From NCBI GenBank assembly GCA_026991225.1, contig JALXCB010000046.1:5147-69146 (forward strand): DNA of 64,000 bases, given 5' to 3'. Shown in pieces: positions 4,576 through 30,051 of this stretch. The DNA is from Anaerolineae bacterium (GTDB taxonomy: Bacteria > Chloroflexota > Anaerolineae > J102). Position numbers and translations under genes: made by a program. The notes beneath the pieces were generated by a model. That model did not search any database. It worked only from the letters and a program-made list of their open reading frames with translations, and was not told where the DNA came from. Each line of letters opens with the position of its first letter. Within the stretch, counting starts at the first letter, position 1.

Positions 4576-4604
4576 ATTCTATCAGAGAACCCTCTCTGTG
4601 TCAA
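4576..4604 (-). promoter_or_regulatory. Near-consensus sigma-70 promoter for the LysM/CBM gene
   Basis: Minus strand reads TTGACA-N17-TAGAAT (-35 at about 4599-4604, -10 at about 4576-4581). This is about 70 nt upstream of the start codon, in an AT-rich spacer. Confidence 0.5.
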
Positions 4605-4858
4605 GTAAATCCTGTTGGTAATGAACGCGGATTTATAAAATTGCACAAAATTTAGAAATCGCGAAAACAAATCCAAATCGACGCGAACAGAAAATTTTCG
4701 ACGCGAACAAAGAAATTCGAATATTCCCCTGGAGGTTTTTGTTGGAAGGCGCGTCACATCATCATTGTCAACCTCGTTGTCCTTCGATAGAAGCCTTCCC
4801 ACTACACTCCTTAAGACGAAAAGCAATGGTAAAAGTTACGGGCGGAAGGCGCTCAACT

Positions 4859-5815
4859 TCATCCCAGCTCGAATAGCAAATCGGGCAGATCAGTGATATC
4901 CGGGGCCAGGGTGAGATGGTATGCCGGGGCGGATTCCACCAATCGCCGCAAGACATGCATGTGTGCGGGGATGGTTTCAGCATCCCAGTCCTCGATAGAC
5001 TGAGTCACCAGACGCTTGAGGGCGTCGAAACGAGGCATAGGAGCGATTTGGCATTGGAGAGCATCGGATGCGATATGGGGGAAAAGCAAAGCGGCGGGTC
5101 TCCCCCACTGTGCCCAGGGGTCAGGGTGGATGGCGTCGACCGGAAAGCTGATTTTCTCGCTGCCGTCGAGGACCTGACCTTCGGTCAGCAGGTGCGAAAG
5201 CCTGGGAAAACGGGCGATGCTGTCGGGATAGGCGCTGATCAGGCCGGGATAGGCGTGCAGGATGGGTTCATCCCCTGCCAGACGCACCAGAGGCGCGTCA
5301 TTGGCGATGAGACGAGCGCCGCGCATCAGCAGGCTGACGCCCGAAGTCGTCTTCCCTGCGCCCACATCGCCCAGCAGCACAAGGGCCCGCTCTCCCACGG
5401 CCGCAGCAAAGGCGTGGATGGGGAAATACCCCCGTCGGCGCAGCAAAGGCGTCATCGCCAGCAGGATCATATCCTCAAAGACGCCATAAGCCCGGATGGC
5501 CACCCTTGCCATCTCCCCGGCGATGGTTCCGCTCTCCAGATCGATATCGAAACGTCCCCATCCATGAAAGACTGTCACCAGACGCTCCCCCTCTCGGAAG
5601 TGCGCCACGTACGGGCCGGAGCTGATGCAGGGCAGGTCAGGAGCGACAATGGGCGCATCGGTGAACGTCAGAGCGAAGTGGATGGCGGGCGTATCGGGCA
5701 GGGTCGACGCCCGAAAAGATCGCCATTGGTCCGCCAGACGTCGGGCCGCGGCCTCGTCATCGACGCGGAAATGGATGGGAATGCGGTGCAGCAAATAAGT
5801 CTGGAGCTCGGTCAT
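4859..5815 (-). CDS. HPr kinase/phosphorylase C-domain-like (HprK-related) P-loop kinase
   Basis: 318 aa. ...LVLLGDVGAGKTTSGVSLLMRGARLIANDAPLV... matches the HprK_C Walker-A / L-x-x-R-G-x-x-L-[VI]-[AS]-D-D pattern. No HPr or PTS genes nearby. Confidence 0.6.
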   Translation of the reverse strand: MTELQTYLLHRIPIHFRVDDEAAARRLADQWRSFRASTLPDTPAIHFALTFTDAPIVAPDLPCISSGPYVAHFREGERLVTVFHGWGRFDIDLESGTIAGEMARVAIRAYGVFEDMILLAMTPLLRRRGYFPIHAFAAAVGERALVLLGDVGAGKTTSGVSLLMRGARLIANDAPLVRLAGDEPILHAYPGLISAYPDSIARFPRLSHLLTEGQVLDGSEKISFPVDAIHPDPWAQWGRPAALLFPHIASDALQCQIAPMPRFDALKRLVTQSIEDWDAETIPAHMHVLRRLVESAPAYHLTLAPDITDLPDLLFELG

Positions 5816-5821
5816 GGCGCA

Positions 5822-7093
5822 TCAGACACCGTCGCGCAGGAGGGGACAGGTCATGCAGTGGCCTCCGCCCCGGCCGCGCCCAAGTTCAAAGCCGTCGATC
5901 TCAAGCACGCGAATGCCCGCTCGGCGCATGGCTTGATTCGTGTATGTATTCTTGCGATAGGCGATGACCACGCCCGGCTCGATGGCGACGGTGTTATTCC
6001 CGTCATCCCACTGCTCCCGGGCCTGCTGATACTCATCCCCGCCCGTGGGAATCACCCGCAGCGACTTCACGCCCATGGCGTCGCGCACGGCTTCAAGAAA
6101 ATCGGCTTCGGGCGTGATATGGAACTGGCGCTCGTGGTCGCCCGGACGGATGCTGTACGCCCGGATAGCTCCCACCACCTTGGGATAGATGGTCACCGCG
6201 TCGACATCGAGCATGGTGAAGACGGTGTCCAGGTGCATGTGCGCCCGGTCGCGGGTCATGTGGGCGACAATGACCCGATCCACCGCGTCCGCGGCGAAAA
6301 GCCGGGCCGCGAGCTGTTCGATCATTTGCCCCGTGGTGCGTTGACTCATTCCCACCAGCAGGGTGCGATTGCCGATGGGCATGACGTCCCCGCCCTCGAT
6401 GCTGGCCCGGCCAAAAGTTTCGGCGTCGAACCGGCAACCATCCCCCTCCTCCAGCAACGGCATCCAGAACTCGAAAGACGCTTCTTGAAACATGGGATGA
6501 AAATGGTAGATCATCCCCACATTGTAAGATTCCAGGTGGCGGGCCTGATGATACATGGTGTTGATGCTGACGCCGTTGTAAATCCAGGAGGAGGAGTCGC
6601 GGGTAAACAGGGAATTGGGCAGGGGCGGGAGGATGAAAGCGTCGTCGGTCGCCGTGACGCCAACCAGGGAAGCGTGTCGAAACAAGTCGCTACCCCCGAG
6701 CTTCTTCGCCTCGCCTTTGGTCATGCCCCCAATGAGGTGCGTGGCCAGCGCGTCGGGGCTGAGCTCATGCAGCATGGCCCGCAGCGGCTCCACCAGGGCC
6801 GCGCCCACGGTGTGCGGGGTGATGACAAGACTGACAATGCGCCGTCGGGCTTCCTCGCTGGCCGCCAGGGTTTCAGTGAGCAGGTCAGCGAGATAGAAGA
6901 CCTGCACGCCCCAATCCCGCATGATTTGAACGAACGCGTCATGCTCCAACTGGGCGTGCTGCACCCAGATGACGTCATCGAAGAGCAGCTCATCGTGATT
7001 GGCGGGCGTGAGGCGCTGCAGGCTCAGATCGGGACGGTGCACCAGCACCTTGCGCAGCTTACCGATTTCAGAATATACGCCGAATTGAGGCAT
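5822..7093 (-). CDS. arcA: Arginine deiminase family protein (amidinotransferase superfamily)
   Basis: Translation from the internal ATG (MPQFGVYSEIGKLRKVLVHRP...) is a typical ADI N-terminus. C-terminal ...GRGGGHCMTCPLLRD carries the catalytic-Cys motif of arginine deiminase. Six bp upstream of the HprK-like gene. No arcB/arcC nearby. Confidence 0.75.
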   Translation of the reverse strand: MPQFGVYSEIGKLRKVLVHRPDLSLQRLTPANHDELLFDDVIWVQHAQLEHDAFVQIMRDWGVQVFYLADLLTETLAASEEARRRIVSLVITPHTVGAALVEPLRAMLHELSPDALATHLIGGMTKGEAKKLGGSDLFRHASLVGVTATDDAFILPPLPNSLFTRDSSSWIYNGVSINTMYHQARHLESYNVGMIYHFHPMFQEASFEFWMPLLEEGDGCRFDAETFGRASIEGGDVMPIGNRTLLVGMSQRTTGQMIEQLAARLFAADAVDRVIVAHMTRDRAHMHLDTVFTMLDVDAVTIYPKVVGAIRAYSIRPGDHERQFHITPEADFLEAVRDAMGVKSLRVIPTGGDEYQQAREQWDDGNNTVAIEPGVVIAYRKNTYTNQAMRRAGIRVLEIDGFELGRGRGGGHCMTCPLLRDGV

Positions 7094-7270
7094 CAAAAGC
7101 TTCCGAGGATAAAATGAAAGGACAGTGCTCATGATATCGCAGTTTCCACTGAATGCCAACTCGACTCATCATCCAGGGTGCGGCCTAATTTTTGGCAAAT
7201 CGCGTTGTCATCAGGAATTCGGTCATGCGGGCTCCCCCGGCGCTGAAGGATACTGTTGGTTTACCTGGAT

Positions 7271-7300
7271 GCGGCGGGGATGGCCCCCTCCCCGCCTTTT
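7271..7300 (+). terminator. Orphan plus-strand intrinsic-terminator-like hairpin in the arcA-hemH spacer
   Basis: GGCGGGGA-TGGCCCCC-TCCCCGCC followed by TTTTTA. No annotated plus-strand gene upstream. Confidence 0.35.
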
Positions 7301-7524: not shown

Positions 7525-8700
7525 TCACGCCTTGGCCGAGGCCGCAACCATCCCCGCCATCGCAGTCACCCAATCATCCCGGTCGTTCAGGCAAGGGATG
7601 AGCTGGAAATGCTCCCCGCCCGCGTCCAGAAACGTCTCCCGACCCGCGATACCGATCTCCTCCAGAGTCTCCAGGCAATCGACCGTGAAGGAAGGGGTGA
7701 CCACGGCCAGGCGCTTCACGCCCACGCGGGCCAGACGCGCCAGCTCATCCGCGGTGGCGGGCTCCAGCCACTTGTCCCGCCCCAGGCGAGATTGGAAGGC
7801 CACCGAATACTGGTCGGGCCGCAACGCCAACGTTTGGGCCACAAGCCGCGTCGTGGTGAAGACCTGGTGGCGATAGCACACCGCATGGGCCGCGGCCGCC
7901 GTCGCGCAGCAGCCATCGCGCAGGCAGCCAGCGCCCCGCGGCGCGGTCTTATGTAAATGCCGCTCGGGGATGCCGTGATAGCTGAATAGCAGGTGAACGA
8001 AATCATTTGAGTCGAGGATGGGACGTATGCTGGCGGCCAGTGAGGCGATGTAGTCGGGATGATCATAATGGGGCGGGATGATGCGCAGCGTGTACTCCCC
8101 CACCTGCCGGGCAATGGCCTTCCTATCCGCCTGAGCCTGGGCCACGGCCCCCCGCAGCCAGCGCGTCGCGGCCCTGTCACCCGTCACCTTCACGCCGACC
8201 AGCTTCTCGAACTCCGCCAGCGTCTTCAACGCCAGGGTTTCGTAAGTGGACATGGCGTAGTGCGGGTACATGGGCAGAAGGATCACCTCCCCGCCCGGTT
8301 CGATGCGTCCCAACAACTTCTCCAGGCCCGACCGCACCGAGGGCTGGCCGTAGCGCATGGCCATGACCACGGGCATATTCAGTCGGGCCTCCAGCTTGGC
8401 CCGCACCCGGTCGGTGAGTGCGATCAGCGGCGAGCCATCCTCCCACCAAATGCTTTGATAGGCGCTGGCGGATTGGGCCGGGCGTTTGGGCAAGATGAAG
8501 CGTTTGACGATGAGCCAGCGCAGGGGATAGGGCATGTCGAGGATGCGTGAATCCATCAGGAATTCATCCAGATAGACCCGCACGTCCGCTTCGTCGGGCG
8601 AAGCTGGCGACCCAAGATTCGCCAAGATGACGCCGCGTAAATGTAACCGATTTGAATAAGCGGGCGTCTTATCGTCGGTTGGCGATAACGCTACATTCAT
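7525..8700 (-). CDS. hemH: Ferrochelatase (coproporphyrin ferrochelatase type)
   Basis: About 392 aa from the ATG at 8700 (MNVALSPTDDKTP...). Ferrochelatase core motifs and a C-terminal Cys-rich segment (CLRDGCC...C). The ORF track extends the N-terminus through an AT-rich AATGAATG-repeat region, probably spuriously. Confidence 0.85.
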   Translation of the reverse strand: MNVALSPTDDKTPAYSNRLHLRGVILANLGSPASPDEADVRVYLDEFLMDSRILDMPYPLRWLIVKRFILPKRPAQSASAYQSIWWEDGSPLIALTDRVRAKLEARLNMPVVMAMRYGQPSVRSGLEKLLGRIEPGGEVILLPMYPHYAMSTYETLALKTLAEFEKLVGVKVTGDRAATRWLRGAVAQAQADRKAIARQVGEYTLRIIPPHYDHPDYIASLAASIRPILDSNDFVHLLFSYHGIPERHLHKTAPRGAGCLRDGCCATAAAAHAVCYRHQVFTTTRLVAQTLALRPDQYSVAFQSRLGRDKWLEPATADELARLARVGVKRLAVVTPSFTVDCLETLEEIGIAGRETFLDAGGEHFQLIPCLNDRDDWVTAMAGMVAASAKA

Positions 8701-8920
8701 TTTCTTTCGTTTTGTTCTTTCATTCATTGCATTCATTTCATTCATTGCCATTGCCAACGCGTCAAAGCCAAAGACGATGAGGACGCGACCAGACAAAAGG
8801 TGAAAATAAAAGCCTTTTTCGCGTCGTCAGCTCTTCGCATCTTTGCGGCATGACATTTTTCGAGGCAGAATCAGACTGTCCTGGCAGTTGCCATTTCTCT
8901 CCAAAGGAGGTTCTTTCACA

Positions 8921-9466
8921 ATGAAAACATGGTTGACTGTTCTACTTGCCCTGATATTGCTTCTCCTGCCTCGGGCGTCCTTCGCCTGGGGAGGAGGGCC
9001 GGATTGGCAACAGATTCAGACAGACGCCAACAGGATTCATGAACAGGCCATCACGCTGGAAGATGAAGCCTTTCAAATGCGTCTGATGGCGCAGCAAGCC
9101 CGTGATATGGAGACGAATCCTGATATCATTCGCGATCTGGATGGCATCATTGCGGCAGCCAGAGATATCGAGCAGGACGCCGCAGCCATTGCGGTCACCG
9201 CGGATGACATCAACTACCGCATCGATCACTCGGAAGTCACCACGCTTTCTCTTGCAGAAGATATTGGTAAGATGGCGAACCGCATCCTGTGGACCGAAGG
9301 TCAGATCGGGATCATGTCGGACCGCATCGTGGTCAGCGAATTCCTCATCAGCGAGAGCGTCCTAACGCTGGTCCGCTCCATCCAGGAGACCAAGGACGCG
9401 ATGACGGTGAATACGCAGACCATTCAGTGGTATAACAGAGACATCCAACAGCAGCTCGTTTTTTAA
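8921..9466 (+). CDS. Secreted hypothetical protein (signal peptide, helical)
   Basis: SD AAGGAGG 10 nt before the ATG. MKTWLTVLLALILLLLPRASFA signal peptide. No recognisable domain. Directly upstream of the ECF sigma factor. Confidence 0.55.
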   Translation: MKTWLTVLLALILLLLPRASFAWGGGPDWQQIQTDANRIHEQAITLEDEAFQMRLMAQQARDMETNPDIIRDLDGIIAAARDIEQDAAAIAVTADDINYRIDHSEVTTLSLAEDIGKMANRILWTEGQIGIMSDRIVVSEFLISESVLTLVRSIQETKDAMTVNTQTIQWYNRDIQQQLVF

Positions 9467-9510
9467 CGACATTCTGCGGGCGGTTCCCGGGATAAACTCG
9501 GGGCCGCCCC

Positions 9511-10131
9511 ATGATGCATGCAACGAGGCCGTCTATGATGCCAACAAAGATGGATGATGTTCATGAACAGAAGCTCATCCAGGGGTTGAAAGCCCATGAA
9601 TCCTGGGCCTGTGAGGAGCTCATCGAGCGATTCGCGGATATGGTGTACCGCGTGTGCTATCGTATCCTGCAGAACCCCCAGGAGGCTGAAGACGCCATGC
9701 AGGAGACGTTCATTACGGTGTATCGCCGCATCGATAGTTTTCGCGGTGACGCGAAGTTGTCGAGCTGGCTCTACCGCGTGGCTACCAACATGGCGCTGAG
9801 CATGTTGCGCTCGAACATCCGAAAACAAGGCCGGGATCTGTCGCTGGAAAACGACGAGGACGATGAAAGGCCTCTGTCCGATGCGGAGGTCATCGTGCCC
9901 GAAACGTTCATCTTGCAACAAGAAAACCGCGCCCTGCTGGAACAAGGCCTGGAAGCTATGTCGCCCAAACTGCGGGCGGCGTTGATGCTCTATGAGATCG
10001 AAGGGTTTTCCATGAAAGAAACAGCCCAGGCATTGGGCGTTTCAGAGTCCGCCGCGAAGCTACGGGTTCACCGCGGACGCCAATTTCTGCAAAAGTATCT
10101 TGCACAGTATTACGAGGAGGTTATGACATGA
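9511..10131 (+). CDS. ECF-type RNA polymerase sigma factor (sigma-70 family)
   Basis: Sigma-70 region 2 (...FITVYRRIDSFRGDAKLSSWLYRVATN...) and region 4 (...EIEGFSMKETAQALGVSESAAKLRVHRGR...). The true start may be an internal Met (9535-9550). Confidence 0.8.
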   Translation: MMHATRPSMMPTKMDDVHEQKLIQGLKAHESWACEELIERFADMVYRVCYRILQNPQEAEDAMQETFITVYRRIDSFRGDAKLSSWLYRVATNMALSMLRSNIRKQGRDLSLENDEDDERPLSDAEVIVPETFILQQENRALLEQGLEAMSPKLRAALMLYEIEGFSMKETAQALGVSESAAKLRVHRGRQFLQKYLAQYYEEVMT

Positions 10132-10961
10132 ATCATCAACAGGCAAGCGCACTCGCTCCCGATTATGTGGACGGGCTTTTGGACGAAGCGCAGCGCGCAG
10201 ACTTCGAAGCGCATCTCCGGGAGTGTCCTGACTGTCAGGAATCGGTGGCTAGCTTTCGGGCCCTGCGCCAGACGCTGAGCAAAACGAAGGATATGGCTCT
10301 TTCCGACGAGGCCCGTCTGCGGCTTTATCAGCGTTTCAACGAGGAGCGGGCCCGCCGCGGGGAGAGTTTGCTACGCGTCCCCGCGGATCTGCTGGCCAGG
10401 GTGAAACCCAAGGCCGCGGCCACGCCTGAAGCGGCCAAAAAGCTGGCGGGCGGCGGCAAAGAGGCCACCCTGCTGGCCGCAGATAGCGGCGCGCACATGG
10501 CCCGATCCACCGGGCGAGGCGCCAAACGTTTTGGCGGCAAAATGAAGCGAAGCGCGAGCAACGCGGGGCGGCATCTGGTGGAAGTGGCCAGGGAGGCGGG
10601 CCGCACCGCCGCGAATGTGGGTCGCATCGTCACTGTGGAGAGTTATGAGGTGCTGCGAGAAGCGCCGCGGAGCAAAGGCAAGGCCCTGCTGGCTCCGCCC
10701 AAACTCATGGGCAAGGGCGTGAAAGCGGGCGCGCGCATGATGACCGGCACGGCGAAAGTTGCGGCCAAGAGCGCCAAAGGGGGGGCTGTCTTGATAAAGG
10801 ATGGGGCCAGCACGGCCGCGACGGGCATGCTCGAGAGCGCCCGCCTGGGCAAGGCCTTTGCCGAATCCACAGACAAGCTGGCCCAGGCCGGGGAGCAGAT
10901 GGCGCGCGGGGTCAAAGAGGCCGCCCGCACCGTGATCGAAGCCTCGGAAAGCGAGGATTAG
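10128..10961 (+). CDS. Putative anti-sigma factor with N-terminal zinc-finger (ZAS-like) motif and Lys/Ala-rich low-complexity C-terminus
   Basis: ATGA overlap with the sigma-factor stop. ...HLRECPDCQES... HxxxCxxC motif. No predicted TM helix. Confidence 0.6.
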   Translation: MNHQQASALAPDYVDGLLDEAQRADFEAHLRECPDCQESVASFRALRQTLSKTKDMALSDEARLRLYQRFNEERARRGESLLRVPADLLARVKPKAAATPEAAKKLAGGGKEATLLAADSGAHMARSTGRGAKRFGGKMKRSASNAGRHLVEVAREAGRTAANVGRIVTVESYEVLREAPRSKGKALLAPPKLMGKGVKAGARMMTGTAKVAAKSAKGGAVLIKDGASTAATGMLESARLGKAFAESTDKLAQAGEQMARGVKEAARTVIEASESED

Positions 10962-10999
10962 CGCCATAGCAATGGAAACTCGGCCCACTGGGCAGGAAA

Positions 11000-11160
11000 A
11001 TCTCTCACGCAAAAGCGTCAAGTCGTCAAGACAAGTTTGCAAGTCGCAGGTGGCGGGTGGCAGGTGACAGGCGGAAGGAAGCAAGTAGAGCTGCGCAAGC
11101 TGACTTGCCACCTGCCAACACTTCTTTTCCCCCTTGCGCCCTGGCGTCTTTGCATGAGAT
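11000..11160. repeat. Family G element, copy G1 (terminal inverted repeats; 3' TIR abuts the hemL stop)
   Basis: ATCTCTCACGCAAAAGCG...TTTGCAAGTCGCAGGTGGCGGGTGGCAGGTG...CTTGCCACCTGCC...CGTCTTTGCATGAGAT. Confidence 0.75.
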
Positions 11161-12449
11161 CAAATGGCGCGGAAGGTCCTGTGCGCGGCTTCGACGGTGG
11201 CGTCGATGACCGCATCGTCGTGGGCCAGGGACATGAAGCCGGCCTCGAATTGGGAGGGGGCGAGATAGACGCCCGCTTCCAGCATGGCCCGGAAGTAGCG
11301 GGCGAAGCGTGCCGTATCGCTGGCCGCAGCCGAATCCCAGTCGGTGACCGGGCCTTCGGTGAAGAAGGCGGCGAACATGGTACCCACTCGGGTCTGATAG
11401 ATGGGCACGCCCGCGGCCCGGGCCGCGTCGCCGATGCCCCGAGACAATCGCTCCGTCCGGGCCTCCAGCGTCTCCCACACACCCGGCTCCGTCAGCTTGC
11501 GCAGGGTGACGATGCCCGCGGTCATGGCCAGGGGGTTGCCGGAAAGGGTCCCGGCCTGATAGACCGACCCCACCGGCGCCACCATCTCCATGATCTCCCG
11601 CCGGCCGCCGTACGCGCCCACAGGCAGCCCCCCGCCGATGACCTTGCCCAGGCAGGTGAGGTCGGGCCGGATGCCGTAGAGGGTTTGCGCGCCGCCCGGA
11701 TGCACGCGAAAGCCGGTCATCACCTCATCGAAGATGAGCAGCGCGCCATGGGCCTGGGTTATCGCCTGCAGCCCCTGCAAAAAGCCCTCTGCCGGAGGCA
11801 CGACGCCCATATTCCCGGCCACGGGCTCCACGATGACCGCGGCGATCTCTTCGGGGAACGCGTCGAACAGCGCCCGCACCGAGTCCAGATCGTTGTAGCG
11901 GGCGACCAGGGTGTCCTGCACCATGGCCGGGGGCACGCCGGGCGAATCGGGCAGGCCCAACGTCGCCACGCCCGACCCTGCCTGCACCAGCAGCAAGTCG
12001 GCATGGCCGTGATAGCAGCCCTGGAATTTGATGATCTTGTGGCGGCCGGTGTAGGCCCGGGCCAGGCGCAGCGCGCTCATGGTGGCCTCGGTGCCCGAAT
12101 TGACGAAGCGCACCATCTCGATGTTGGGCATGAATTCGGTCACCAGCCGGGCCAACTCGATCTCCAGGGGCGAAGGAGCGCCGTAGCTGGTGCCCTTGCG
12201 AACCGCCTCGGTCAGGGCGTCGACCACGTCGGGATGGGCGTGGCCCAGGATGAGCGGGCCCCACGAGAGCACGTAATCGATGAAGCGGTTGCCGTCCACG
12301 TCGAACAGATAGGGCCCCTCGCCCCGCTCGATGAACAGGGGCTGGCCGCCCACCGACTTGAAGGCCCGCACGGGCGAATCCACCCCGCCGGGGAGCAGGC
12401 TTTGGGCCTGGGAAAAGAATTGTTGGGATCGGGTGGTGTTGAGAGTCAT
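11160..12449 (-). CDS. hemL: Glutamate-1-semialdehyde 2,1-aminomutase
   Basis: 429 aa with the classic HemL N-terminus (...[23 protein letters not shown]...) and a class-III aminotransferase fold. Confidence 0.9.
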
Positions 12450-12508
12450 AGTGCTGGATCAGGAGTGGGGTTGGCAAGTTATGACGACTAAGTTATAATG
12501 TTGAAACC

Positions 12509-12739
12509 GTGAAGGCGACGAACTATTTCATCAACAGCGTTTTGAAACGGCGTCCCTACTTGCGATGGGAATGGATCGAACGGGTAATAGCCCATCCGAT
12601 TCGCACCGAAACGCAACCAAACGGACGCATCCGCTTTTGGGGCTGGATTGAAGAAAGAGGAAAGTATTTGCGCGTTGTCACAGAAGCGGATGGAGAAACC
12701 GTTCACAATGCCTTTTTCGATCGTCGTTTCAAACCTTAG
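12509..12739 (+). CDS. DUF4258-family small protein (putative toxin of a DUF4258/DUF2283 pair)
   Basis: 76 aa, GTG start. Basic small protein immediately upstream of a DUF2283-like ORF. Confidence 0.5.
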   Translation: MKATNYFINSVLKRRPYLRWEWIERVIAHPIRTETQPNGRIRFWGWIEERGKYLRVVTEADGETVHNAFFDRRFKP

Positions 12740-12753
12740 CCAGGATTTGCATC

Positions 12754-12990
12754 ATGATCTTCGAGTATTTTCCAGATACGGACATGCTTTATATCCAATT
12801 GAACGAGGGCATCAGCGTGGAATCGGCAGAAATCGCTCCCGGCGTTGTCATCGATCTGGACGATCAGGGCAGCATCATTGGTATTGAAATCGAGGATGCC
12901 AGCGAGCGATTCAATTTGTCTCGACTGGAGCTGAAAGGACTCCCGCTGGCTGACCTCGTCGTTCGGGACAGGTTGCCTCAAGCGGCCTGA
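12754..12990 (+). CDS. DUF2283-family small protein (putative antitoxin partner)
   Basis: 78 aa. MIFEYFPDTDMLYIQL... is the characteristic DUF2283 N-terminus. Confidence 0.55.
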   Translation: MIFEYFPDTDMLYIQLNEGISVESAEIAPGVVIDLDDQGSIIGIEIEDASERFNLSRLELKGLPLADLVVRDRLPQAA

Positions 12991-13089
12991 GCAGGACCTT
13001 ATCGGACAATCCAACGGCTCGCCGATACGAACGGAAATGGGAATGCTGATGACACGGATGCTTCGCAACGCAGATTTCCGCAGATCTGT

Positions 13090-13290
13090 TCCGAAAATAG
13101 CGTTGGCCCTCCCTGCCAAAAGTCGCCATGCCAACGTTGGGCGAGGCTGCAACGGACGTGATGAGTAATGCGTAATCCGTGAGATCGTTACGCATCACGC
13201 ATTACGCATTACGTGCTTGGCTTCCCGCGCCGCCCTGGCCGCGAGACATTTTCATCGGTATCGGCGCGCCGCCGCGCATGGCGCCTTCGT
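13090..13290 (+). repeat. Family A MITE-like element, copy A1
   Basis: ...CCGAAAATAGCGTTGG...CCAACGTTGGGCGAGGCTGCAACGG + CGTGATGAGTAATGCGTAATCCGTGAG...CGCATCACGCATTACGCATTACG hairpin + GGCTTCCCGCGCCGCCCTGGCCGCG...TTTTCATCGGTATCGGC tail. Confidence 0.8.
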
Positions 13291-13365
13291 TCTGATTTTT
13301 TCTGCGTTCATCTGCTTGCATCCGCGTTCACCTGCGTTCTCTCATCCTGGCTTCGGAACAAGGAT
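13291..13365. repeat. Family D copy D2 (overlaps the last ~15 codons and stop of hemY)
   Basis: CTGATTTTTTCTGCGTTCATCTGCTTGCATCCGCGTTCACCTGCGTTCTCTC. A D-like fragment also sits at about 13060-13090. Confidence 0.7.
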
Positions 13366-14750
13366 TTCACCGCCATCTCGCCCGAATGGATGCAGTCGGG
13401 GATGCCGATGCCGTGGTAGGCGTTGCCAGCCAGGGCCAGGCCCGGCCAGCGCTCCAACCCGGCCAGGATGCGTCCCACCCGAGCGGGATGGCCCACGTTG
13501 TATTGGGGCATGGCCCGCGGCCAGATAAAGACGCGGTGAAGAAAGGGCTCAGCGGTGACGCCCAGGGTCAGGCGCAGCTCCTCCCGGGCGATGGCCAACA
13601 GCCCTTCTTCCGTCCAATCGATGGCGTCTTCCTGGCCCGCGCGGCCCACGAACACCCGCAGCAAGGCCATGCCTTCGGGCGCGCGGTGGGGAAATTTGGT
13701 AGAGGTCCAGGTGCAGGCCAGGGCTTTGCGCCCCTCCCGGCGGGGGATCACGTAGCCGTAGCCGTCCAGCGGGCGGGGGACGTCGGCCAGGCGGTAGGCC
13801 AGGGAGATGGTGGCCGTGGACGCGTAGGGGATGGCGTCCAGCAGGGAAGCGAGTTCAGGGTCGTGCGGGCGCAGCAGGCGGGCAGAGACGAACGCGGGCG
13901 CAGCCAGGATGAGTCGGTCAGCCTTCAACACTGCATACTGATTACTGAATACTGAATATTGGTGACTATCCTTTTTCAACTCCCTCACCTCCACACCCAA
14001 CCTCAACTCCGCCCCCAATTTACGCAACCTCACCACCAACGCCTCCACCAGCTCGGCCAGGCCCGTTTGCGGGGTGACGAACATGCTGCGGGAGCCGGGC
14101 GCGGCCCCGTTGCGCTTCATCCGCTCCCGTTTGGCGGCCAGCGCGCCCCGCACCAATCCCCCATGCTTCACCTCCAGGTCTCGCAGATAGGGGAAGGTGG
14201 CTTGCAGGCTGAGCTGGTCGCCATCGCCCGCGTAGATGCCGCTCATCAACGGCTCGATGAGCGCCTCATAAGCCTCCCGCCCCAGGCGACGGCCCACAAA
14301 CCGGCCCAGGCTCTCCTCCCCGGGCGACTTCGCGGGCGGCAGCAGGAAGTCGAGGCCCATGCGCAGCTTGCCAGGCCAGGAGATGAGCCCGGTGCGCAGC
14401 ATCCCCCCGAAATCAGTGGGGATCATCATGGTCAGACCGCCGGGCAGGGGATGCAGGCGGCCTTTGTGCAGGATGTAGGTGGCTTTCTGCTTGGGGTTGC
14501 TGCCATGCAGACGGTCGGCGACGCCCAGCTCTCGGGCCAGGGCCATGCCCCACGGCTTTATGGCGATGAAGGTGTCGGGCCCGCCTTCGATGACGAAGCC
14601 ATCCACCCGCTCGGTCGCGATCTTCCCGCCCCAGCGGTGGGCTTTTTCCAGCACGATGACCTCATCGGGCGGGTTTTGGGGCCGGGTGAGGGCGAAGTAG
14701 GCGGCGGAGAGGCCGGCGATGCCACCGCCGATGATGATGAGTCGAGTCAT
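13308..14750 (-). CDS. hemY: Protoporphyrinogen/coproporphyrinogen III oxidase (HemY/CgoX, FAD-dependent)
   Basis: 480 aa. N-terminal MTRLIIIGGGIAGLSAAY dinucleotide-binding motif. Amine-oxidase fold. It carries an in-frame E-family repeat copy (about 13929-13970). Its last ~15 codons plus the stop lie in a D-family repeat. Confidence 0.85.
   Translation of the reverse strand: MTRLIIIGGGIAGLSAAYFALTRPQNPPDEVIVLEKAHRWGGKIATERVDGFVIEGGPDTFIAIKPWGMALARELGVADRLHGSNPKQKATYILHKGRLHPLPGGLTMMIPTDFGGMLRTGLISWPGKLRMGLDFLLPPAKSPGEESLGRFVGRRLGREAYEALIEPLMSGIYAGDGDQLSLQATFPYLRDLEVKHGGLVRGALAAKRERMKRNGAAPGSRSMFVTPQTGLAELVEALVVRLRKLGAELRLGVEVRELKKDSHQYSVFSNQYAVLKADRLILAAPAFVSARLLRPHDPELASLLDAIPYASTATISLAYRLADVPRPLDGYGYVIPRREGRKALACTWTSTKFPHRAPEGMALLRVFVGRAGQEDAIDWTEEGLLAIAREELRLTLGVTAEPFLHRVFIWPRAMPQYNVGHPARVGRILAGLERWPGLALAGNAYHGIGIPDCIHSGEMAVKSLFRSQDERTQVNADASR
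13929..13970. repeat. Family E copy E2, in frame inside hemY
   Basis: ACTGCATACTGATTACTGAATACTGAATATTGGTGAC, translated on the minus strand as ...HQYSVFSNQYAV... Confidence 0.55.
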
Positions 14751-14764
14751 AGAGTGATCTTACG

Positions 14765-14840
14765 TTGAGTAATCAGTTATCAGTAAACAGTAATCAGTGG
14801 GGGCGCGGATGGATACTGATTACTGATCACTGTTTACTGA
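14765..14840. repeat. Family E copy E3 (palindrome between hemY start and hemE stop)
   Basis: GAGTAATCAGTTATCAGTAAACAGTAATCAGTG...CACTGATTACTGATCACTGTTTACTGATTAC. Confidence 0.7.
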
Positions 14841-15908
14841 TTACTTCCGGTTAAATTCATGGACCATTGCGACGACGGCCCGCACGTTCTCCACGGGCGT
14901 GTGCTGCAAGATGCCGTGGCCCAGGTTGAAGATGTGGCCCGGTCGACCCGCCGCGCGGGTCAACACGTCCCGCACCTGGTTTTCCAGCTCGGGCAGGGGG
15001 GCGAAGAGTGCGGTGGGATCGAGATTGCCCTGCACGGCCACGTCGTCGCCCAACAGCGCCCATCCTTCATCCAGAGGGATGCGCCAATCCAGGCCGATGA
15101 CATGCCCGCCCGCGGCCTTCATCTCCCCTAGCAGCGTGGTTGCGCCCACGCCGAAGTGGATGACGGGGACGTCGGCCCGGGCCATGAGGGTTTGTAGAAT
15201 CTGGCGGGAATAGGGCTGGACGAAACGGCGGTAATCCTGAGGATTCAGTGCGCCCACCCAGGAATCGAAGAGCTGCAAGGCCTGTGCGCCCGCGTCGGCT
15301 TGCGCCAGCAGATAATCGATGAGCACGGGCGTGAGTTTTTGCATGAGGGCGCGCCAGGCGGCGGGCTGCCCGTACATGAGCTTCTTGGTTTCGACGAAGT
15401 TGCGGGACGGCCCGCCCTCGATAATGTAGGCGGCCAGGGTGAAGGGCGCTCCTGCGAAACCGATGAGGGGAACGTCCCGACCATCCAACTCCGTCCGCAC
15501 CAGGCGGATGGCCTCGTACACATGCCCCAGGTCGGCCCGCACGTCCACTGGCCGGAGCGCGGCCACGTCGTCGGGCGAGCGCACGGGGTTGTGGATGACG
15601 GGCCCGCGGCCGGGGACGAATTCCAGCTTCAGGCCCATGGGCGGCAGGGGCAGGAGGATGTCGGCGAAGAGGATGGCCGCGTCCACGCCCAGGGTGTCCA
15701 CGGGCTGGAGGGTGATCTCGGCCGCGACCTCGGGCCGGGCGATCATCTCCAGGATGCTCTTGTGCTGGCGGCGGATGGCCTGGTATTCGGGCATGTAGCG
15801 CCCGGCCTGGCGCATGAACCAGACGGGCGTCGTGTCAGTAATCAGTCTTCGAGTGGCTCTCAGAAATCTCGATGTTGGCTCGTTAGTCATCATTGTCAGG
15901 GTTCTCAT
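14841..15908 (-). CDS. hemE: Uroporphyrinogen decarboxylase
   Basis: ...TPVWFMRQAGRYMPEY... is the canonical HemE N-terminal motif. Start may be Met6/Met7 of the listed ORF. Confidence 0.9.
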   Translation of the reverse strand: MRTLTMMTNEPTSRFLRATRRLITDTTPVWFMRQAGRYMPEYQAIRRQHKSILEMIARPEVAAEITLQPVDTLGVDAAILFADILLPLPPMGLKLEFVPGRGPVIHNPVRSPDDVAALRPVDVRADLGHVYEAIRLVRTELDGRDVPLIGFAGAPFTLAAYIIEGGPSRNFVETKKLMYGQPAAWRALMQKLTPVLIDYLLAQADAGAQALQLFDSWVGALNPQDYRRFVQPYSRQILQTLMARADVPVIHFGVGATTLLGEMKAAGGHVIGLDWRIPLDEGWALLGDDVAVQGNLDPTALFAPLPELENQVRDVLTRAAGRPGHIFNLGHGILQHTPVENVRAVVAMVHEFNRK

Positions 15909-15919
15909 TGGAAAAGTAA

Positions 15920-15974
15920 TCAGTCATCAGTCCAACGGTTTGTTCCTCACTGATTACTGCTTACTGATAACTGA
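15920..15974. repeat. Family E copy E4 (between hemE start and the rSAM stop)
   Basis: GAAAAGTAATCAGTCATCAGTCC...CACTGATTACTGCTTACTGATAACTGATTAC. Confidence 0.65.
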
Positions 15975-17129
15975 TTACTTCGCCTCGCGAAAGGCTTCAG
16001 GAACGTACACACACGCCGGGTCAGTTTCCAGATAATCGCCGGTGACGCCATAGGCCCGGCCGCGCTGGCCGCCGCACACGTCGCGGAATTCGCAGACGCC
16101 GCAGCGGCCCTTCAGTTTGTCGGGGTCCCGCAGGTCTTTGAATAAAGGATGGTTGCGATAGACCTCGACCACGTCATCTTTGCGGACGTTTCCGGCCACG
16201 ATGGGCAGGAAGCCGGAGGGTTCGATATTGCCGATGTGGGAGATGAAGAGGAAGCCATTGCCGTCGTTGACGCCTTTGGTGGGGCGGTTGAGGCCGTCCG
16301 CGTACTGGAAGCCCGCGCCCTGGAAGGCGATGGGCGCATCTTCGCCCAGTTCCTGGCGCTTGCGCTGGATGGCCACGCGGCGATACATGGGCGCGGCCGT
16401 GGCTTTGACGTCGAAAGGCGCTTCTTGGGCCAGGTCATACAGCCAATTGAAAATGCGCTCGTGCTCCTCGGGGGAGATCATCCAGTCGATCTGGCCCCGG
16501 CCCGTGGGCACCAGGAAGAAGACGGACCACTGCACCGCGCCCACCTCTTCGATGAAAGGCACCATCTCGGGCAGGATGTGGGCGTTGTGTTTGGCGACGG
16601 TGGTGTTCACCTGCACGCTCAGGCCCACGTCATGCGCCCGATGCAGGATGTCCATGGTGCGCTGCCAGGAGCCCGCCACCTTGCGGAAGTCGTCGTGGAT
16701 GGCGGGGCGGGGCGCATCCAGGCTAAGGGCGATGCGGCGGATGCCCGCGTCCCGGGCCTTTTGCAGCCGCTCTTTGGTGGGCAGAGCCGTGGCCGTGGGC
16801 GTCAGGGAGCAGCGCAGGCCCTTTTCAGTGGCGTAGGCGATGAGATCGAACAGGTCGCGGCGCATCATGGGGTCGCCGCCGGTGAAGATGAGGATGGGAT
16901 GGTTGCCGAACGCGGCCAGCCGATCGATGAGCTGAAAGCCTTCCTCGGTGGTGAGTTCCAGGGGATGGCGTTGGGGTTGGGCGTCGGCCCGGCAGTGGAC
17001 GCAGGCGTAGGCGCAGGCCCGGGTCACTTCCCAGGCGATGGTGAAGGGCGCTTTGTCGAAGTCCGCGTGCACCATGCGCCGGTCGTGGTAGGTGCGTTCG
17101 GCTGTGGCGGAGGGGGTGAGGTTGGACAT
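15975..17129 (-). CDS. Radical SAM/SPASM-domain protein, AhbD/NirJ-like, embedded in the heme operon
   Basis: 384 aa. CAYACVHC (CxxxCxxC). C-terminal Cys cluster ...KGRCGVCEFRDVCGG...DPACVY (SPASM-type auxiliary cluster motifs). Sits between hemB and hemE on the same strand. Confidence 0.7.
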   Translation of the reverse strand: MSNLTPSATAERTYHDRRMVHADFDKAPFTIAWEVTRACAYACVHCRADAQPQRHPLELTTEEGFQLIDRLAAFGNHPILIFTGGDPMMRRDLFDLIAYATEKGLRCSLTPTATALPTKERLQKARDAGIRRIALSLDAPRPAIHDDFRKVAGSWQRTMDILHRAHDVGLSVQVNTTVAKHNAHILPEMVPFIEEVGAVQWSVFFLVPTGRGQIDWMISPEEHERIFNWLYDLAQEAPFDVKATAAPMYRRVAIQRKRQELGEDAPIAFQGAGFQYADGLNRPTKGVNDGNGFLFISHIGNIEPSGFLPIVAGNVRKDDVVEVYRNHPLFKDLRDPDKLKGRCGVCEFRDVCGGQRGRAYGVTGDYLETDPACVYVPEAFREAK

Positions 17130-17263
17130 GGGAGGATTGGGATTGGGATTGGAAGATTCGTCTTTTGTGACACGGATGGAAGGAACACGGATGACATTCG
17201 ATTGATGCTATCATTAAGCCATTTTCCCATCCGTGTTTTCTTTTATCCGTGTTGCATGACCTT

Positions 17264-18334
17264 TTACAGCAATTTTGCGGCGTCCAGGGCGAAGTAGGTG
17301 AGGATGAGATCAGCGCCCGCGCGTTTGATGGCGAGCAGGCTCTCCAGCATGACGCGGGTCCCGTCGATCCAGCCGTTGGCGGCCGCGGCCTTGATCATGG
17401 CGTATTCGCCCGAGACCTGGTATGCGGCCAGGGGGAGCTTCACCTGCTCCTTGAGCTGCGCCAGGATGTCCAGGTAGAAGCTGGCGGGCTTGACCATGAT
17501 GATGTCCGCGCCTTCGGCGATGTCGATCTGCACCTCGCGCAGGGCCTCGCGGGCGTTGGCCGGGTCCATCTGATACTGGCTGCGGTCGCCGAATGCGGGC
17601 GGGCTTTCGGCCGCGTCGCGGAAGGGACCGTAGAGGGCGCTGGCGTACTTGGCCGCATAGCTCATGATGGGGATGTGTTCGAACCCGGCGTCATCCAGGC
17701 CCGAGCGGATAGCGCCCACCATACCGTCCATCATGCCGCTGGGCGCGACCATGTCCGCGCCGGCGCGAGCGTGGGTCACCGCGGCCCGGCTGATGTAATC
17801 CAGGGTGGGGTCGTTGAGGACGTAGCCCGTGGGGAGATTGGGGTTGTACGCGGGCTCGTCGGGCGTGTTGATGATCCCGCAATGCCCGTGATTGGTGTAT
17901 TCACACATGCAGATGTCGCTGACCACGACCAGGCCGGGCAGCGCCCGCTTCAAGGCCCGAATGGCTTCAGGGATGATGCCGTGAGGATCGTCATTTTCGC
18001 TGCCGTAGGGGTCCTTGTGTTCGGGAATGCCGAAGAGGATGACCGAGCGCACACCCAGACTCCACGCCCGCTCCGCTTCCTCGATCATCGTGTCGATGGA
18101 GAGCTGGAACTGGCCGGGCATGGAGGGAATGGGGTGACGAACGCCCTCGCCGTGGCGCACGAACAGGGGGTAGATGAAATCCTCGGGATGGAGATGGGTT
18201 TCCTGCACCATTTGCCGCAGCGCGGGGGAAAGGCGCAGGCGGCGAGGGCGGGCCAGGAGGGAGCGATGGCCGTTGCCGGGCCTCGATGACGTCACAGCTG
18301 TGGGCAGGATGGTGGGGAAAGAAGTTGCGCTCAT
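17264..18334 (-). CDS. hemB: Porphobilinogen synthase (delta-aminolevulinate dehydratase)
   Basis: Start taken at [10 protein letters not shown]... (ATG 18332-18334). ALAD family motifs. Overlaps the hemD stop region. Confidence 0.9.
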
Positions 18335-18372
18335 GATAAAAGTCCTTATGAGAGGAAACGAAAGATCGAAGA

Positions 18373-19158
18373 CTAAAGACTGACCGCCGGCTCTCCGAAC
18401 CAATCTCTCAATGCTGCGACCAGTCCTGGCGTGGTGTATTCTTCGGGCATGATGTCCACAGTCAGGCCCGCTTGCCGGGCTGCGTCCGCGGTGACGGGCC
18501 CGATGCAGGCGATGACCGCCCCGGCCAGGGCCTCTACGCCCAGGCCCGCCTCTCGCTCCAGGCGAATGAGGGTGTTGCGTACAGTGGAGGGACTGGTGAA
18601 TGTGATGGCGTCCACCAGTCCCGAGTGCAGAGCCGCGGGCAGATCCTCGCCCCCGCTCCCCAGCACGGTCTCATAGGCTGTGACCACGTCCACCCGCACA
18701 CCCCGGGCCCGCAGGCCGTCGGGCAGCACGTCCCGAGCCTGGGCGGCCCGCGGGAGCAGCACCCGCTGGCCCGCGGGAATGGGCAGCGCGGCCAGCAGAC
18801 TCTCCCCCACCGCTTTGGGCGGGATCAGGTCCACGTCCAGCCCCAGACGACGTTCGACGGCCCAGGCGGTGGCCGGGCCCACCGCGGCGATGTTCGGGCC
18901 GTGCAGCGCGTTTGGGGGCAATCCCAGCGCATCCAGGCGTCGGGCCACGGCCTCCACCGCATTGGCGCTGGTGAAGAGGAACCAGTCGTAGTCGCGGGCG
19001 TGGCGCAGGGCCACGTCCAGCGGGCCGGCGTCCGCGGGCGGTTGGATGGCGATGGCGGGATAAAGCAGGGTGCGGAAGCCTGCGGCCTCCAGCAGGGCCT
19101 TCAGTTCGTCCGCCTGGTGCGCGGTTCGGGTGATGACGATGGTGGGAGAAAAAGTCAT
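18373..19158 (-). CDS. hemD: Uroporphyrinogen-III synthase
   Basis: About 262 aa from the ATG at 19156-19158 ([28 protein letters not shown]...). HemD-like two-domain pattern. The listed longer ORF has an N-terminal extension without an SD. Confidence 0.7.
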
Positions 19159-19237
19159 GGTGAATGGTGAGAGATGATTTGACGGTCTCATGTCCATTAT
19201 GTTAGGATCAATGCAATCATTGTTCAGGAGATGCGCT

Positions 19238-19474
19238 ATGGCAGTTGAAGTCAAAACCGTCGAGATCCGAGACGCCAAAAAAGAGTTCCAGCGATGGCTC
19301 GCACTGGCGCAACAGGGCGTCGAGGTCATTGTCACCGATGAAGGCGAACCATTGGCTCGCATCTCAGCGGTTCGACCAAACGAGGGCCGCGTCGCTGGAC
19401 TGAACCGAGGTGAAATCAAAGCTGCCGAAGATTTCGATGAGCCGCTGCCAGAGTCCTATTGGATCGGGGAGTAA
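19238..19474 (+). CDS. Type II antitoxin (Phd/YefM/VapB-like)
   Basis: About 79 aa. MAVEVKTVEIRDAKKEFQRWLALAQQGVEVIVTDEGEPLARI... Stop TAA overlaps the ATG of the downstream PIN gene (GAGTAAATG). Confidence 0.6.
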   Translation: MAVEVKTVEIRDAKKEFQRWLALAQQGVEVIVTDEGEPLARISAVRPNEGRVAGLNRGEIKAAEDFDEPLPESYWIGE

Positions 19475-19876
19475 ATGCGCCTTCTGCTCGACACACACAT
19501 TTTTATCTGGTGGGCGGATGAGCCAGAACGTCTTGATGGACGGCTGCTCGACGCTCTGCTGAACGCTGAAAATGAATTGATTTTGAGTGTTGTCAGTCTT
19601 TGGGAAATGCAGATCAAAGCGCAATTGGGGAAATTAACGTTCCAAAGGCCGTTGAAGGAGCTCGTTCATTTACAACAAAGCGTCAACGGGTTGCAACTGC
19701 TTCCTGTAACGTCAAATCACGTGTTTTTGCTGGATGAACTGCCACTCATTCACAAGGATCCATTTGATCGGTTGATCATCGCTCAGGCGTTGGCGGAGAA
19801 TCTGATCCTCGTGAGTCACGATAGAGTATTCGAGGACTATCAGGTCCTCCTGTGGAAGCCCGATATGCAGGGATAA
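19475..19876 (+). CDS. vapC: PIN-domain ribonuclease toxin (VapC family)
   Basis: 133 aa. MRLLLDTHIFIWW...DPFDRLIIAQA...LVSHD carries PIN-domain acidic residues. Confidence 0.8.
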   Translation: MRLLLDTHIFIWWADEPERLDGRLLDALLNAENELILSVVSLWEMQIKAQLGKLTFQRPLKELVHLQQSVNGLQLLPVTSNHVFLLDELPLIHKDPFDRLIIAQALAENLILVSHDRVFEDYQVLLWKPDMQG

Positions 19877-19878
19877 AG

Positions 19879-20790
19879 TTAATCGGAAGTCGATAAGATT
19901 TCGACAGCGCCCTGGACAAGCGCCTCTTCCGCCAGGGCCCGGCCCAGCGCCAGGGGATCGTCGCCCGTCGCCTCCACGCGTAGCGTGCGGCGGCCATCGG
20001 GCGAGGCCACCAGCCCGGTGAGATGCAGGCCGGCATCGACAGGATGGGCGTATGCGGCCACGGGAATGGCGCAGCCGCCGCCCAATCCCGCCAGAAAGGC
20101 CCGCTCGGCCTGTGCGGCCGCCCGCGCGGCGGGATCTTCCACCGCGGCCAGCAGAGCCAGGGTGCGTTCATCGTCCGCCCGGCACTGCACGCCCAACACG
20201 CCCTGCCCCGGCGCAGGCAGCATGACGTCCAGGGGCAGATACTGCGTCACCGCGTCTTCCAGGCCCAACCGGGTGACCCCGGCCGCGGCCAGCACAATGG
20301 CGTCGTACTGGCCCTCCCGAGCCTTGCGGATGCGGGTGTCCACATTGCCGCGGATGGGTTTGACCGCCAGGTCGGGGCGATAGGCCAGCAGTTGGGCCTG
20401 ACGCCGGGGGCTGGAGGTGCCCACCACCGCGCCCGCGGGCAATGCATCCAGCGTGCGTCCCGCAGGGCAGATGAGCGCGTCTCGGGCGTCGGCCCGCGGG
20501 GGCGTGAGACCGATGGTGAGGCCGGGCGCATCCTCCACCGGCAGGTCTTTCAGGGAATGGACGGCCGCGTCCACCCGGCCCTCCCGCAAAGCCCGCTCCA
20601 GCTCTGCGGTGAAGAGCCCCTTGCCGCCGATGAGGGGCAGGGGCTTGTCCAGAATCCGGTCGCCTTGGGTGACGATGACCTGGATGTCGATGGTCAGGCC
20701 GGGATGCGCCGCCCGCAGCAGATCCGCGACGTAGTCGGTCTGCCAGCGGGCCAGTGCGGAGGGGCGGGTGGCGAAGGTGAGAGTGGGCAT
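19879..20790 (-). CDS. hemC: Hydroxymethylbilane synthase (porphobilinogen deaminase)
   Basis: Start at MPTLTFATRPSALARWQT... (ATG 20788-20790). ...GNVDTRIRK...QGVLGVQCRADDERTL... HemC motifs. Confidence 0.9.
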   Translation of the reverse strand: MPTLTFATRPSALARWQTDYVADLLRAAHPGLTIDIQVIVTQGDRILDKPLPLIGGKGLFTAELERALREGRVDAAVHSLKDLPVEDAPGLTIGLTPPRADARDALICPAGRTLDALPAGAVVGTSSPRRQAQLLAYRPDLAVKPIRGNVDTRIRKAREGQYDAIVLAAAGVTRLGLEDAVTQYLPLDVMLPAPGQGVLGVQCRADDERTLALLAAVEDPAARAAAQAERAFLAGLGGGCAIPVAAYAHPVDAGLHLTGLVASPDGRRTLRVEATGDDPLALGRALAEEALVQGAVEILSTSD

Positions 20791-20831
20791 GAGAGTGGAG
20801 ATTGGGATCAGGATAGGATGAGGGAACGTAG

Positions 20832-20972
20832 CCAGGTTGGCGCGGGAAGCCACTCCCGTAATGCGTGATGCGTAAGGAGCTCACGGATTACGCATTACGC
20901 ATCACGTCGGTTGCAGACTCGCCCACCGTGGGCTTCGAGTCATTTTTGCAAACCAACGCTATTTTCGGAGCA
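20832..20972 (-). repeat. Family A copy A2 (inverted orientation)
   Basis: Same modules in reverse complement. Its terminal CCGAAAATAGCGTTGG module supplies the hemA stop codon. Confidence 0.8.
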
Positions 20973-22224: not shown

Positions 22225-22413
22225 AATCGACGCAGAAATCAGGAAGGGCGGTTCGGAATAGAAGTTAAGCAAACCTCATAATTTCTAAGTAAACCTTATC
22301 ACAGATTGCAATCGACGACCAAAAAATGTCTTCTCCAAAACCCCGAGAAAACAAAGAATGCGATGAATCCTACATTAAAAGTGGCTAAAAACCGAGGTGA
22401 AACACGCGCTCAA

Positions 22414-29119: not shown

Positions 29120-29171
29120 TCCATGATCTGTCCAACCGCGAATGCTTCCTCATCGAGATGGATGAAAATGG

Positions 29172-29262: not shown

Positions 29263-29280
29263 AGAGCGTCTCCCTAAACT

Positions 29281-30050: not shown

Positions 30051-30051
30051 G

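Follow-up and report, generated by a model that had tools for sequence, protein, structure and literature searches.

An arginine deiminase gene followed by an HprK-like kinase gene related to lasso-peptide tailoring kinases in an Anaerolineae bacterium

Introduction

HprK-like kinases encoded in lasso-peptide and LPP clusters, which make peptides that are synthesized on the ribosome and modified after translation (RiPPs), add phosphate to a serine in the precursor (PMC8498205; PMC13381572), and the peptidyl-arginine deiminase (PAD) that acts on citrulassin is encoded away from its own lasso cluster (PMC8498205). Here we consider a gene pair in which an arginine deiminase (ADI) gene is followed by a gene for an HprK-like P-loop kinase, found in a 64-kb stretch of contig JALXCB010000046.1 from an Anaerolineae bacterium (Chloroflexota); this whole stretch is referred to as the window. 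An earlier note on this DNA had pointed out the pair and proposed that the two enzymes might modify a peptide or protein, for example a secreted one, a secreted LysM/CBM protein being encoded next to them. We arrive at a different picture: chances are about even that the deiminase stands alone and that the kinase, a hitch-hiker from a RiPP-tailoring lineage, has as its substrate some peptide or protein whose gene lies elsewhere.

How does the pair compare with described systems? The deiminase has its closest counterpart in Pseudomonas aeruginosa ArcA (1RXX, 2A9G, 2ACI), which is of equal length, aligns with it along the full sequence and has the same catalytic and substrate-binding residues; unlike ArcA, it lies outside an arcDABC operon and has a kinase gene after it. 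The citrulassin enzyme resembles it in modifying guanidino groups, broadly speaking, but belongs to the PAD family, whereas the window enzyme belongs to the ADI family and keeps the binding site for the free amino acid. For the kinase, the comparison is with PadeK, ThcoK and PsmK (paeninodin/pseudomycoidin-type lasso peptides) and LppK (LPP), which are likewise P-loop kinases of the HprK superfamily of ~320 aa; Chloroflexota homologues of the window kinase adjoin B1, B2 and C genes, often together with NTP_transf_5, as in the known clusters. This likeness to the Firmicute kinases is one of context, the profile scores being weak. The window kinase differs from them in having no RiPP neighbour, in sharing a putative operon with a primary-metabolism gene and in its diverged N-domain (24% identical to that of the lasso-linked homologues). 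With HPr kinase/phosphorylase (HprK/P) it has in common the Walker A motif GxxGxGK[ST] and an acidic catalytic motif, but it scores below the Pfam and TIGR00679 cutoffs, has neither an Hpr_kinase_N domain nor a context of HPr, phosphotransferase system (PTS) or CcpA genes, and superposes over ~130-150 residues only. ATP-dependent phosphoenolpyruvate (PEP) carboxykinase is alike in fold; the window kinase is, however, 13% identical to it and ~200 residues shorter, and nothing in our data speaks for oxaloacetate or PEP as a substrate.

Results

Both genes lie on the minus strand. The ADI gene (423 aa; 5822..7093, stop included) was identified from Pfam, NCBIfam, alignment to 1RXX and conservation of its start. 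It reads from 7093 to 5822 as MPQFGVY...GGGHCMTCPLLRDGV, then TGA, its translation having MPQFGVYSEIGKLRKVLVH at the start and GRGRGGGHCMTCPLLRDGV at the end, and its ATG at 7093 belongs to ATGCCnCAnTTyGGnGT, the sole block conserved there in 8 orthologous loci. After a spacer of 6 bp (tgcgcc; 5816..5821, minus strand) follows the kinase gene (318 aa; 4859..5815, minus strand, stop included), read from 5815 to 4859; it holds GDVGAGKTT (residues 149-157) and RGARLIANDAPL, its translation includes LLGDVGAGKTTSGVSLLMRGARLIANDAPL, and it divides into an N-domain (~residues 1-110) and a nucleotide-binding domain (~residues 111-318). The gene order and spacing described in the earlier note are thus as claimed. 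A promoter-like TTGGCA-17-TATCAT (7131..7159, minus strand) lies ~38 bp upstream of the ADI start, and the upstream spacers of 8 loci have nothing conserved in common but a TGnTATCAT/TGTATGAT-like (-10-like) box. Because no promoter-like or terminator-like site is present between the two genes, and because the LysM/CBM gene downstream (4501->2588, minus strand) has a near-consensus promoter of its own (TTGACA-17-TAGAAT at 4604..4576), ADI and kinase are likely co-transcribed as a two-gene unit apart from the LysM gene.

The deiminase itself holds few surprises. It scores 393.1 bits against Pfam ADI (PF02274; cutoff 22.8), passes NCBIfam NF002381 (526.6 bits, cutoff 414), narrowly misses the stricter arcA equivalog TIGR01078 (463.1 bits, cutoff 489.1) and can be aligned over its whole length with P. 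aeruginosa ADI (1RXX, E = 1.5e-120). In the alignment to 1RXX/2ACI, N160, F163, D166, R185, E233, R252, H287, D289, R408 and C413 correspond to N160, F163, D166, R185, E224, R243, H278, D280, R401 and C406 of the P. aeruginosa enzyme, so that the full catalytic Cys/His/Asp/Glu set and the free-arginine-binding set are both kept. Cys413, which aligns with the catalytic Cys406, sits in GGGHCMTCP, with the His412-Cys413 codons at 5855..5860 (minus strand). Among the aligned residues are the catalytic nucleophile and base, as well as the arginines and the asparagine that, in published structures, grip free L-arginine by its alpha-carboxylate and its alpha-amino group. Among profile models searched at E <= 0.01, ADI and, weakly, DDAH were the only matches, PAD not being one of them, and no available test points to peptidyl-arginine as the substrate. 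ADIs from Actinomycetota and further phyla show 62-66% identity to the enzyme. Judged by these residues and scores, it is a canonical ArcA-type enzyme, predicted to be cytoplasmic and to act on free L-arginine: an enzyme of an already known kind, whose stand-alone arrangement is unremarkable.

The kinase is less easily placed. Its Walker A motif, G149-D-V-G-A-G-K155-T-T157 (5345..5371, minus strand), aligns with GDSGVGKS of Lactobacillus casei HprK/P, and N172-D173 (5297..5302, minus strand), a putative catalytic/Mg site, aligns with the DD of HprK/P 'LIADD' (1JB1). A profile of the kinase family matches this structure in the PDB with E = 8.5e-5 (GDiGaGKtt against GDSGVGKS, LiaND against LIADD), and an AlphaFold model built on an alignment of 32 homologues has a pLDDT of 93.5 and a pTM of 0.90. 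Among 32 kinase sequences G149, G152, A153, G154, K155 and T157 are invariant. The earlier note had suggested profile searches as a check on both proteins; the ADI assignment passed PF02274 and NF002381, whereas the window kinase reaches only 19 bits (E = 1e-3) against Pfam Hpr_kinase_C, below the gathering score of 33.3, and it is 31 of its 32 relatives that match this domain. Hpr_kinase_N and PEPCK of Pfam found no match in the window protein. It also stays far below the cutoffs of HprK_rel_A (33 bits, cutoff 200) and HprK_rel_B (19 bits, cutoff 200), its relatives reach at most 34 bits against TIGR00679 (cutoff 240), and the curated RiPP-kinase models (TIGR04352, TIGR04355 and ScmC, the last being the NCBIfam model for the SynChlorMet cassette protein and only weakly related) are likewise passed by none of the clades described below, nor by 10 distant representatives. 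Because these curated thresholds fail, the protein cannot be filed under HprK/P, HprK_rel_A, HprK_rel_B or ScmC. Every database copy is annotated 'hypothetical protein'. An exhaustive HMMER search of 1.84 billion representatives, each standing for a cluster at 50% identity, returned 217 clusters at E <= 1e-30, 2,140 at <= 1e-10 and 12,656 at <= 1e-3, the ADI-linked and pyrD-linked groups appearing to fall into two of these representatives. By profile and by predicted structure, then, the kinase is a new, uncurated Chloroflexota branch of the HprK-like superfamily with the PEPCK/HprK fold.

We collected 46 genome loci (all from Chloroflexota metagenome-assembled genomes, MAGs), 66 metagenome loci and several exact-match contigs, here given L-numbers, and scored their flanks by tblastn. 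The kinase occurs in three gene contexts that follow its identity to the window protein. Kinases 53-76% identical have ADI directly upstream in at least 10 non-redundant loci, and indeed at every locus where identity reaches 53% or more and upstream sequence is available; kinases 44-50% identical lie downstream of pyrK-pyrD and usually upstream of clpS; and those 35-43% identical over their full length are divergent from adjoining PqqD, Transglut_core3 and Asn_synthase genes. By their Pfam labels, these last (B1, B2 and the lasso cyclase, C) make up a lasso core, present in dozens of Chloroflexota loci and often accompanied by a B12 radical SAM protein, DUF5693 and an NTP_transf_5 nucleotidyltransferase. 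The relationship to RiPP-tailoring kinases that the earlier note drew from general knowledge is thereby borne out within the phylum. The metagenome loci, as an independent scan, repeated the three-way split by identity band. In a neighbour-joining tree of 50 sequences the ADI-linked clade stands beside the pyrD-linked one, both being sister to the lasso-linked sequences. N172-D173 is unchanged throughout all three clades, and Walker A, H134, R126-R128, K221 and W277-D278 are kept across them as well.

Not all kinases fit these contexts neatly. Some pyrD-linked loci have an additional ORF (open reading frame) between pyrD and the kinase gene, which by motif reading only resembles a SAM-methyltransferase in L020 (4077-4928) and RidA/YjgF in L022 (4160-4615) and L074 (5597-5998). 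In L025 (4256-6972) a 556-aa Ser/Thr phosphatase of the PP2C type (66.6 bits for PP2C_2) is encoded 63 bp ahead of a pyrD-clade kinase (44% identical) and in the same orientation, an arrangement that resembles a kinase/phosphatase pair; PP2C was dismissed as a recurrent neighbour, since it was seen in L025 only. Other kinases outside clusters lie beside OmpR-type regulators (L046, L047), and some have an NTP-transferase alone.

The lasso-linked loci deserve a note of their own. In L010, L028, L043, L081, L085, L109 and ~40 further loci, PqqD-B2-(gap)-cyclase is divergent from the kinase gene, and the kinase is followed by convergent genes for a B12-binding radical SAM protein, DUF5693 and NTP_transf_5. 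Such an elaborated lasso cluster with an HprK-like kinase is apparently both widespread in Chloroflexota and undescribed, our literature search having found no paper that describes it. A motif heuristic and all-against-all clustering of small ORFs, applied to these loci in search of a lasso precursor, returned only shadow frames of PqqD. L010 has a 21-aa ORF upstream of the NTP-transferase gene.

Within the ADI-linked clade the junction between the two genes ranges from an 11-nt overlap to a spacer of ~30 bp, and the outer flanks vary: heme genes and LysM in the window, LbH/GNAT/DUF692 genes in L007 and L065, and OAD genes with a ferredoxin-type gene in L014. The adjacency of ADI and kinase is not a matter of chance. 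Of the neighbourhood that the earlier note had proposed to examine across genomes, the pair is conserved and the adjacent LysM gene is not. The dependence between the two partners is nonetheless loose on the ADI side. In L061 an ADI 86% identical to that of the window has no kinase, the LysM promoter region coming right after its stop codon without any trace of a kinase gene; the ADI of L066 (76% identical) is likewise without a kinase, as are the more distant Chloroflexota ADIs of L063 (70%) and L062 (68%). Where both are present, ADIs are 78-96% and kinases 53-76% identical to the window proteins. We found no ADI residue that tracks the presence of the kinase: H278, a candidate signature of kinase-linked ADIs on a split of 9 linked and 10 unlinked sequences, failed when 35 more ADIs were added, position 278 in linked ADIs then also being Q or R. 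Our literature search found no paper connecting HprK-like kinases to arginine deiminase.

Two sets of flanking genes may be recorded here. Genes for an LbH/hexapeptide transferase, a GNAT protein and a MbnB/TglH/ChrH (DUF692) protein, with a CHAD protein nearby, lie divergent and upstream of ADI in L007 (6195-8366), L061 (6219-8645) and L065 (1063-1791); the set is not in the window. DUF692 enzymes are known RiPP modifiers. Genes for a carboxyltransferase, a biotin carrier and OAD-beta (a Na+-decarboxylase) are found at 27225-31167 of the window, 20 kb from ADI, and their equivalents at 1410-4940 of L014 immediately precede the ADI-kinase pair, an example of the reshuffling of its flanks.

If the pair worked in a classical pathway or a RiPP cluster, partners might be expected nearby. 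A Pfam survey of ORFs of at least 300 aa in the 64-kb window found no ornithine carbamoyltransferase (OTCase), carbamate kinase, PTS/HPr, PqqD, B2 or lasso cyclase, as the earlier note had remarked for the ADI-pathway and PTS partners. With neither an Arg/Orn antiporter nor an OTCase nor a carbamate kinase accompanying ADI in the window, the locus is not an arcABC(D) operon; nor do arcB or arcC adjoin ADI in any of the seven ADI contexts examined, while L014 has an OTCase 9 kb from the pair. For the kinase, no HPr, PTS or CcpA domain of Pfam was seen in the window. The 430-bp spacer upstream of ADI contains no conserved ORF and matches nothing in Rfam at E <= 1, and none of the small ORFs in this spacer or the other is conserved or precursor-like, in agreement with the earlier reading of the upstream spacer.

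Discussion

Because the partner gene differs between sister clades, because the kinase also occurs in orphan contexts and because it has been lost where ADI was kept, we favour a role for the kinase that is independent of its partner. In the scenario to which we give about even chances, ADI would act alone, turning free L-arginine into citrulline and ammonia, and arcB and arcC would in these Chloroflexota either be dispersed elsewhere in the genome or be absent. One branch of the kinases would have departed from lasso clusters and settled, first or alternately, behind housekeeping genes at their 3' ends (in one clade pyrD, in that of the window ADI), there to be expressed from the promoter of the upstream gene by read-through and translational coupling. 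Judging from its homologues, the kinase would use ATP to phosphorylate a serine hydroxyl on some peptide or protein whose gene lies in another part of the genome, and its substrate would be neither arginine nor citrulline nor the deiminase. By analogy, the kinase most probably works like the lasso/LPP kinases; from its conserved motifs we infer that it is enzymatically active and, from the distribution of the two genes, that ADI and kinase are not functionally coupled.

Several observations sit uneasily with this scenario. Neither in the window nor in the flanks of the ADI-linked loci did we find a substrate peptide, a RiPP recognition element (RRE) or any further RiPP gene, and a second, lasso-linked copy of the kinase was found in none of 14 MAGs with an ADI- or pyrD-linked one. 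The N-domain is only 24% identical between ADI-linked and lasso-linked kinases, compared to 47% for the catalytic domain. In a PEPCK-like architecture the N-domain would help to shape the substrate cleft, and its divergence therefore means that the substrate may have changed in kind. The matches to HprK_rel_A are weak (31-60 bits, cutoff 200), and the Chloroflexota family is without a characterised member; the putative substrate is assigned by homology and context. Moreover, the ADI-kinase junction persists in at least 10 non-redundant lineages despite the reshuffling of the outer flanks, which could reflect selection for co-expression with ADI, and that ADI and PyrD both lie on the carbamoyl-phosphate branch may be no coincidence.

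Such considerations lead to a scenario where the kinase serves the upstream enzyme, be it ADI or, in the sister clade, PyrD, as its dedicated regulator or partner, acting through serine phosphorylation or by forming a complex. HprK/P provides the analogy of a metabolite-sensing regulatory kinase, the junctions, which are tight and in many cases overlap, suggest coupled translation and synthesis in equimolar amounts, the pair travels as a unit among differing neighbourhoods, both upstream enzymes belong to arginine/pyrimidine (carbamoyl-phosphate) metabolism, and the PP2C phosphatase beside a pyrD-clade kinase fits protein phosphorylation. Yet close relatives of the window ADI (86% and 76% identical) do without a kinase, no ADI residue is specific to the linked enzymes, an extra gene separates pyrD from the kinase in several pyrD-linked loci, and it would be unparsimonious for sister clades to have exchanged PyrD for ADI as the target; we regard such coupling as rather improbable. 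A broader variant, in which the kinase lineage, translationally coupled to ADI or PyrD, has been domesticated into primary metabolism and either phosphorylates or partners the upstream enzyme or acts on its ureido product, strikes us as unlikely. Were the kinase to spend ATP on a small molecule, on citrulline or another ureido or hydroxy-acid metabolite, the pair might constitute a non-classical arginine/energy route that replaces arcB and arcC. Neither gene lies beside ADI in any of the seven contexts, and arginine synthetase, a P-loop enzyme of an unrelated family, couples the interconversion of arginine and citrulline to ATP (PMC11032458). We nevertheless consider this a very unlikely explanation: by sequence the kinase is closest to those of peptide clusters, neither citrulline nor orotate carries a hydroxyl of the type that the family phosphorylates, Pfam PEPCK is unmatched, ADI can do without the kinase, and the OTCase found in L014, 9 kb away, fits a classical pathway whose genes are dispersed. 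That the sister clade follows pyrD argues, in addition, against chemistry specific to arginine or citrulline.

There remains the proposal of the earlier note, that deiminase and kinase jointly tailor one peptide or protein, possibly the LysM/CBM protein, to give a product both citrullinated and phosphorylated. It draws on the kinship of the kinase with lasso-cluster kinases, on the membership of the deiminase in a guanidino-modifying superfamily that includes peptidyl-arginine deiminases (PMC8498205) and on the LysM gene adjoining the pair in several loci. As a peptide modifier, however, the deiminase does not convince: it has all free-arginine-binding residues, passes the arginine deiminase model NF002381, is far more conserved than the kinase (78-96% against 53-76%) and is found alone in close relatives, and the citrulassin enzyme invoked as its precedent is described as a PAD, not an ADI (PMC8498205). 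No precursor ORF, RRE, protease or exporter accompanies the pair, and the spacers hold no conserved sequence that would stand for one. The LysM/CBM protein was rejected as a partner on the grounds of synteny and of its own promoter, the gene being missing from several ADI-kinase loci and present beside ADI where the kinase is absent; furthermore, the proposed target is secreted, while the N-termini of ADI and kinase, by eye, do not look like signal peptides. Joint tailoring is thus, in our estimate, the least credible of the explanations considered, and a highly improbable one.

What would follow depends on the explanation. If the kinase is an orphan tailoring enzyme, as in the scenario of a stand-alone ADI, the locus puts on record an uncurated family that comprises no fewer than 217 clusters at 50% identity and indicates that RiPP-type HprK-like kinases also exist outside biosynthetic clusters, attached to housekeeping genes; genome mining would be warned that an HprK-like kinase alone is no marker of a RiPP locus. 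If, on the other hand, the kinase were coupled to ADI and PyrD, it would be a rare documented recruitment of a tailoring enzyme of secondary metabolism for the regulation or extension of core nitrogen metabolism and could explain how stand-alone ADIs operate in Chloroflexota. Domestication, if true, would add to the carbamoyl-phosphate node a new step, regulatory or energy-linked, in organisms whose ADI has no arcB/arcC neighbours.

Further features of the window

Upstream of the LysM/CBM promoter, TGTTCGCGTCGA occurs twice in identical form on the minus strand, at a distance of 20 bp (4678-4689 and 4698-4709), and a third, degenerate copy (TTGTTTTCGCGA) is found just upstream of the promoter, the repeat region extending over 4655-4715. 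The pattern also precedes the LysM orthologue in L061 (~10560-10640), and the repeats may constitute an operator.

On the other side of the pair, a strong terminator-like hairpin of 8 pairs (7 of them G-C) followed by TTTTT is read on the plus strand at 7273-7296, in a spacer between minus-strand genes only. Beyond it, a heme cluster on the minus strand (7525-20853) comprises ferrochelatase, hemL, a protoporphyrinogen oxidase-like gene, hemE, a radical SAM gene (15975-17129), hemB, hemD and hemC. It is split by a plus-strand unit (8843-10961) that encodes a 207-aa protein without assignment, an ECF sigma factor and a zf-HC2 anti-sigma factor. L004 has these heme genes in another order, with glutamyl-tRNA reductase included. 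Next to the cluster, a 456-aa ORF on the plus strand (20911-22281) without a Pfam match has a third-position GC of 0.70, below that of its neighbours, and may be either spurious or a gene without assignment.

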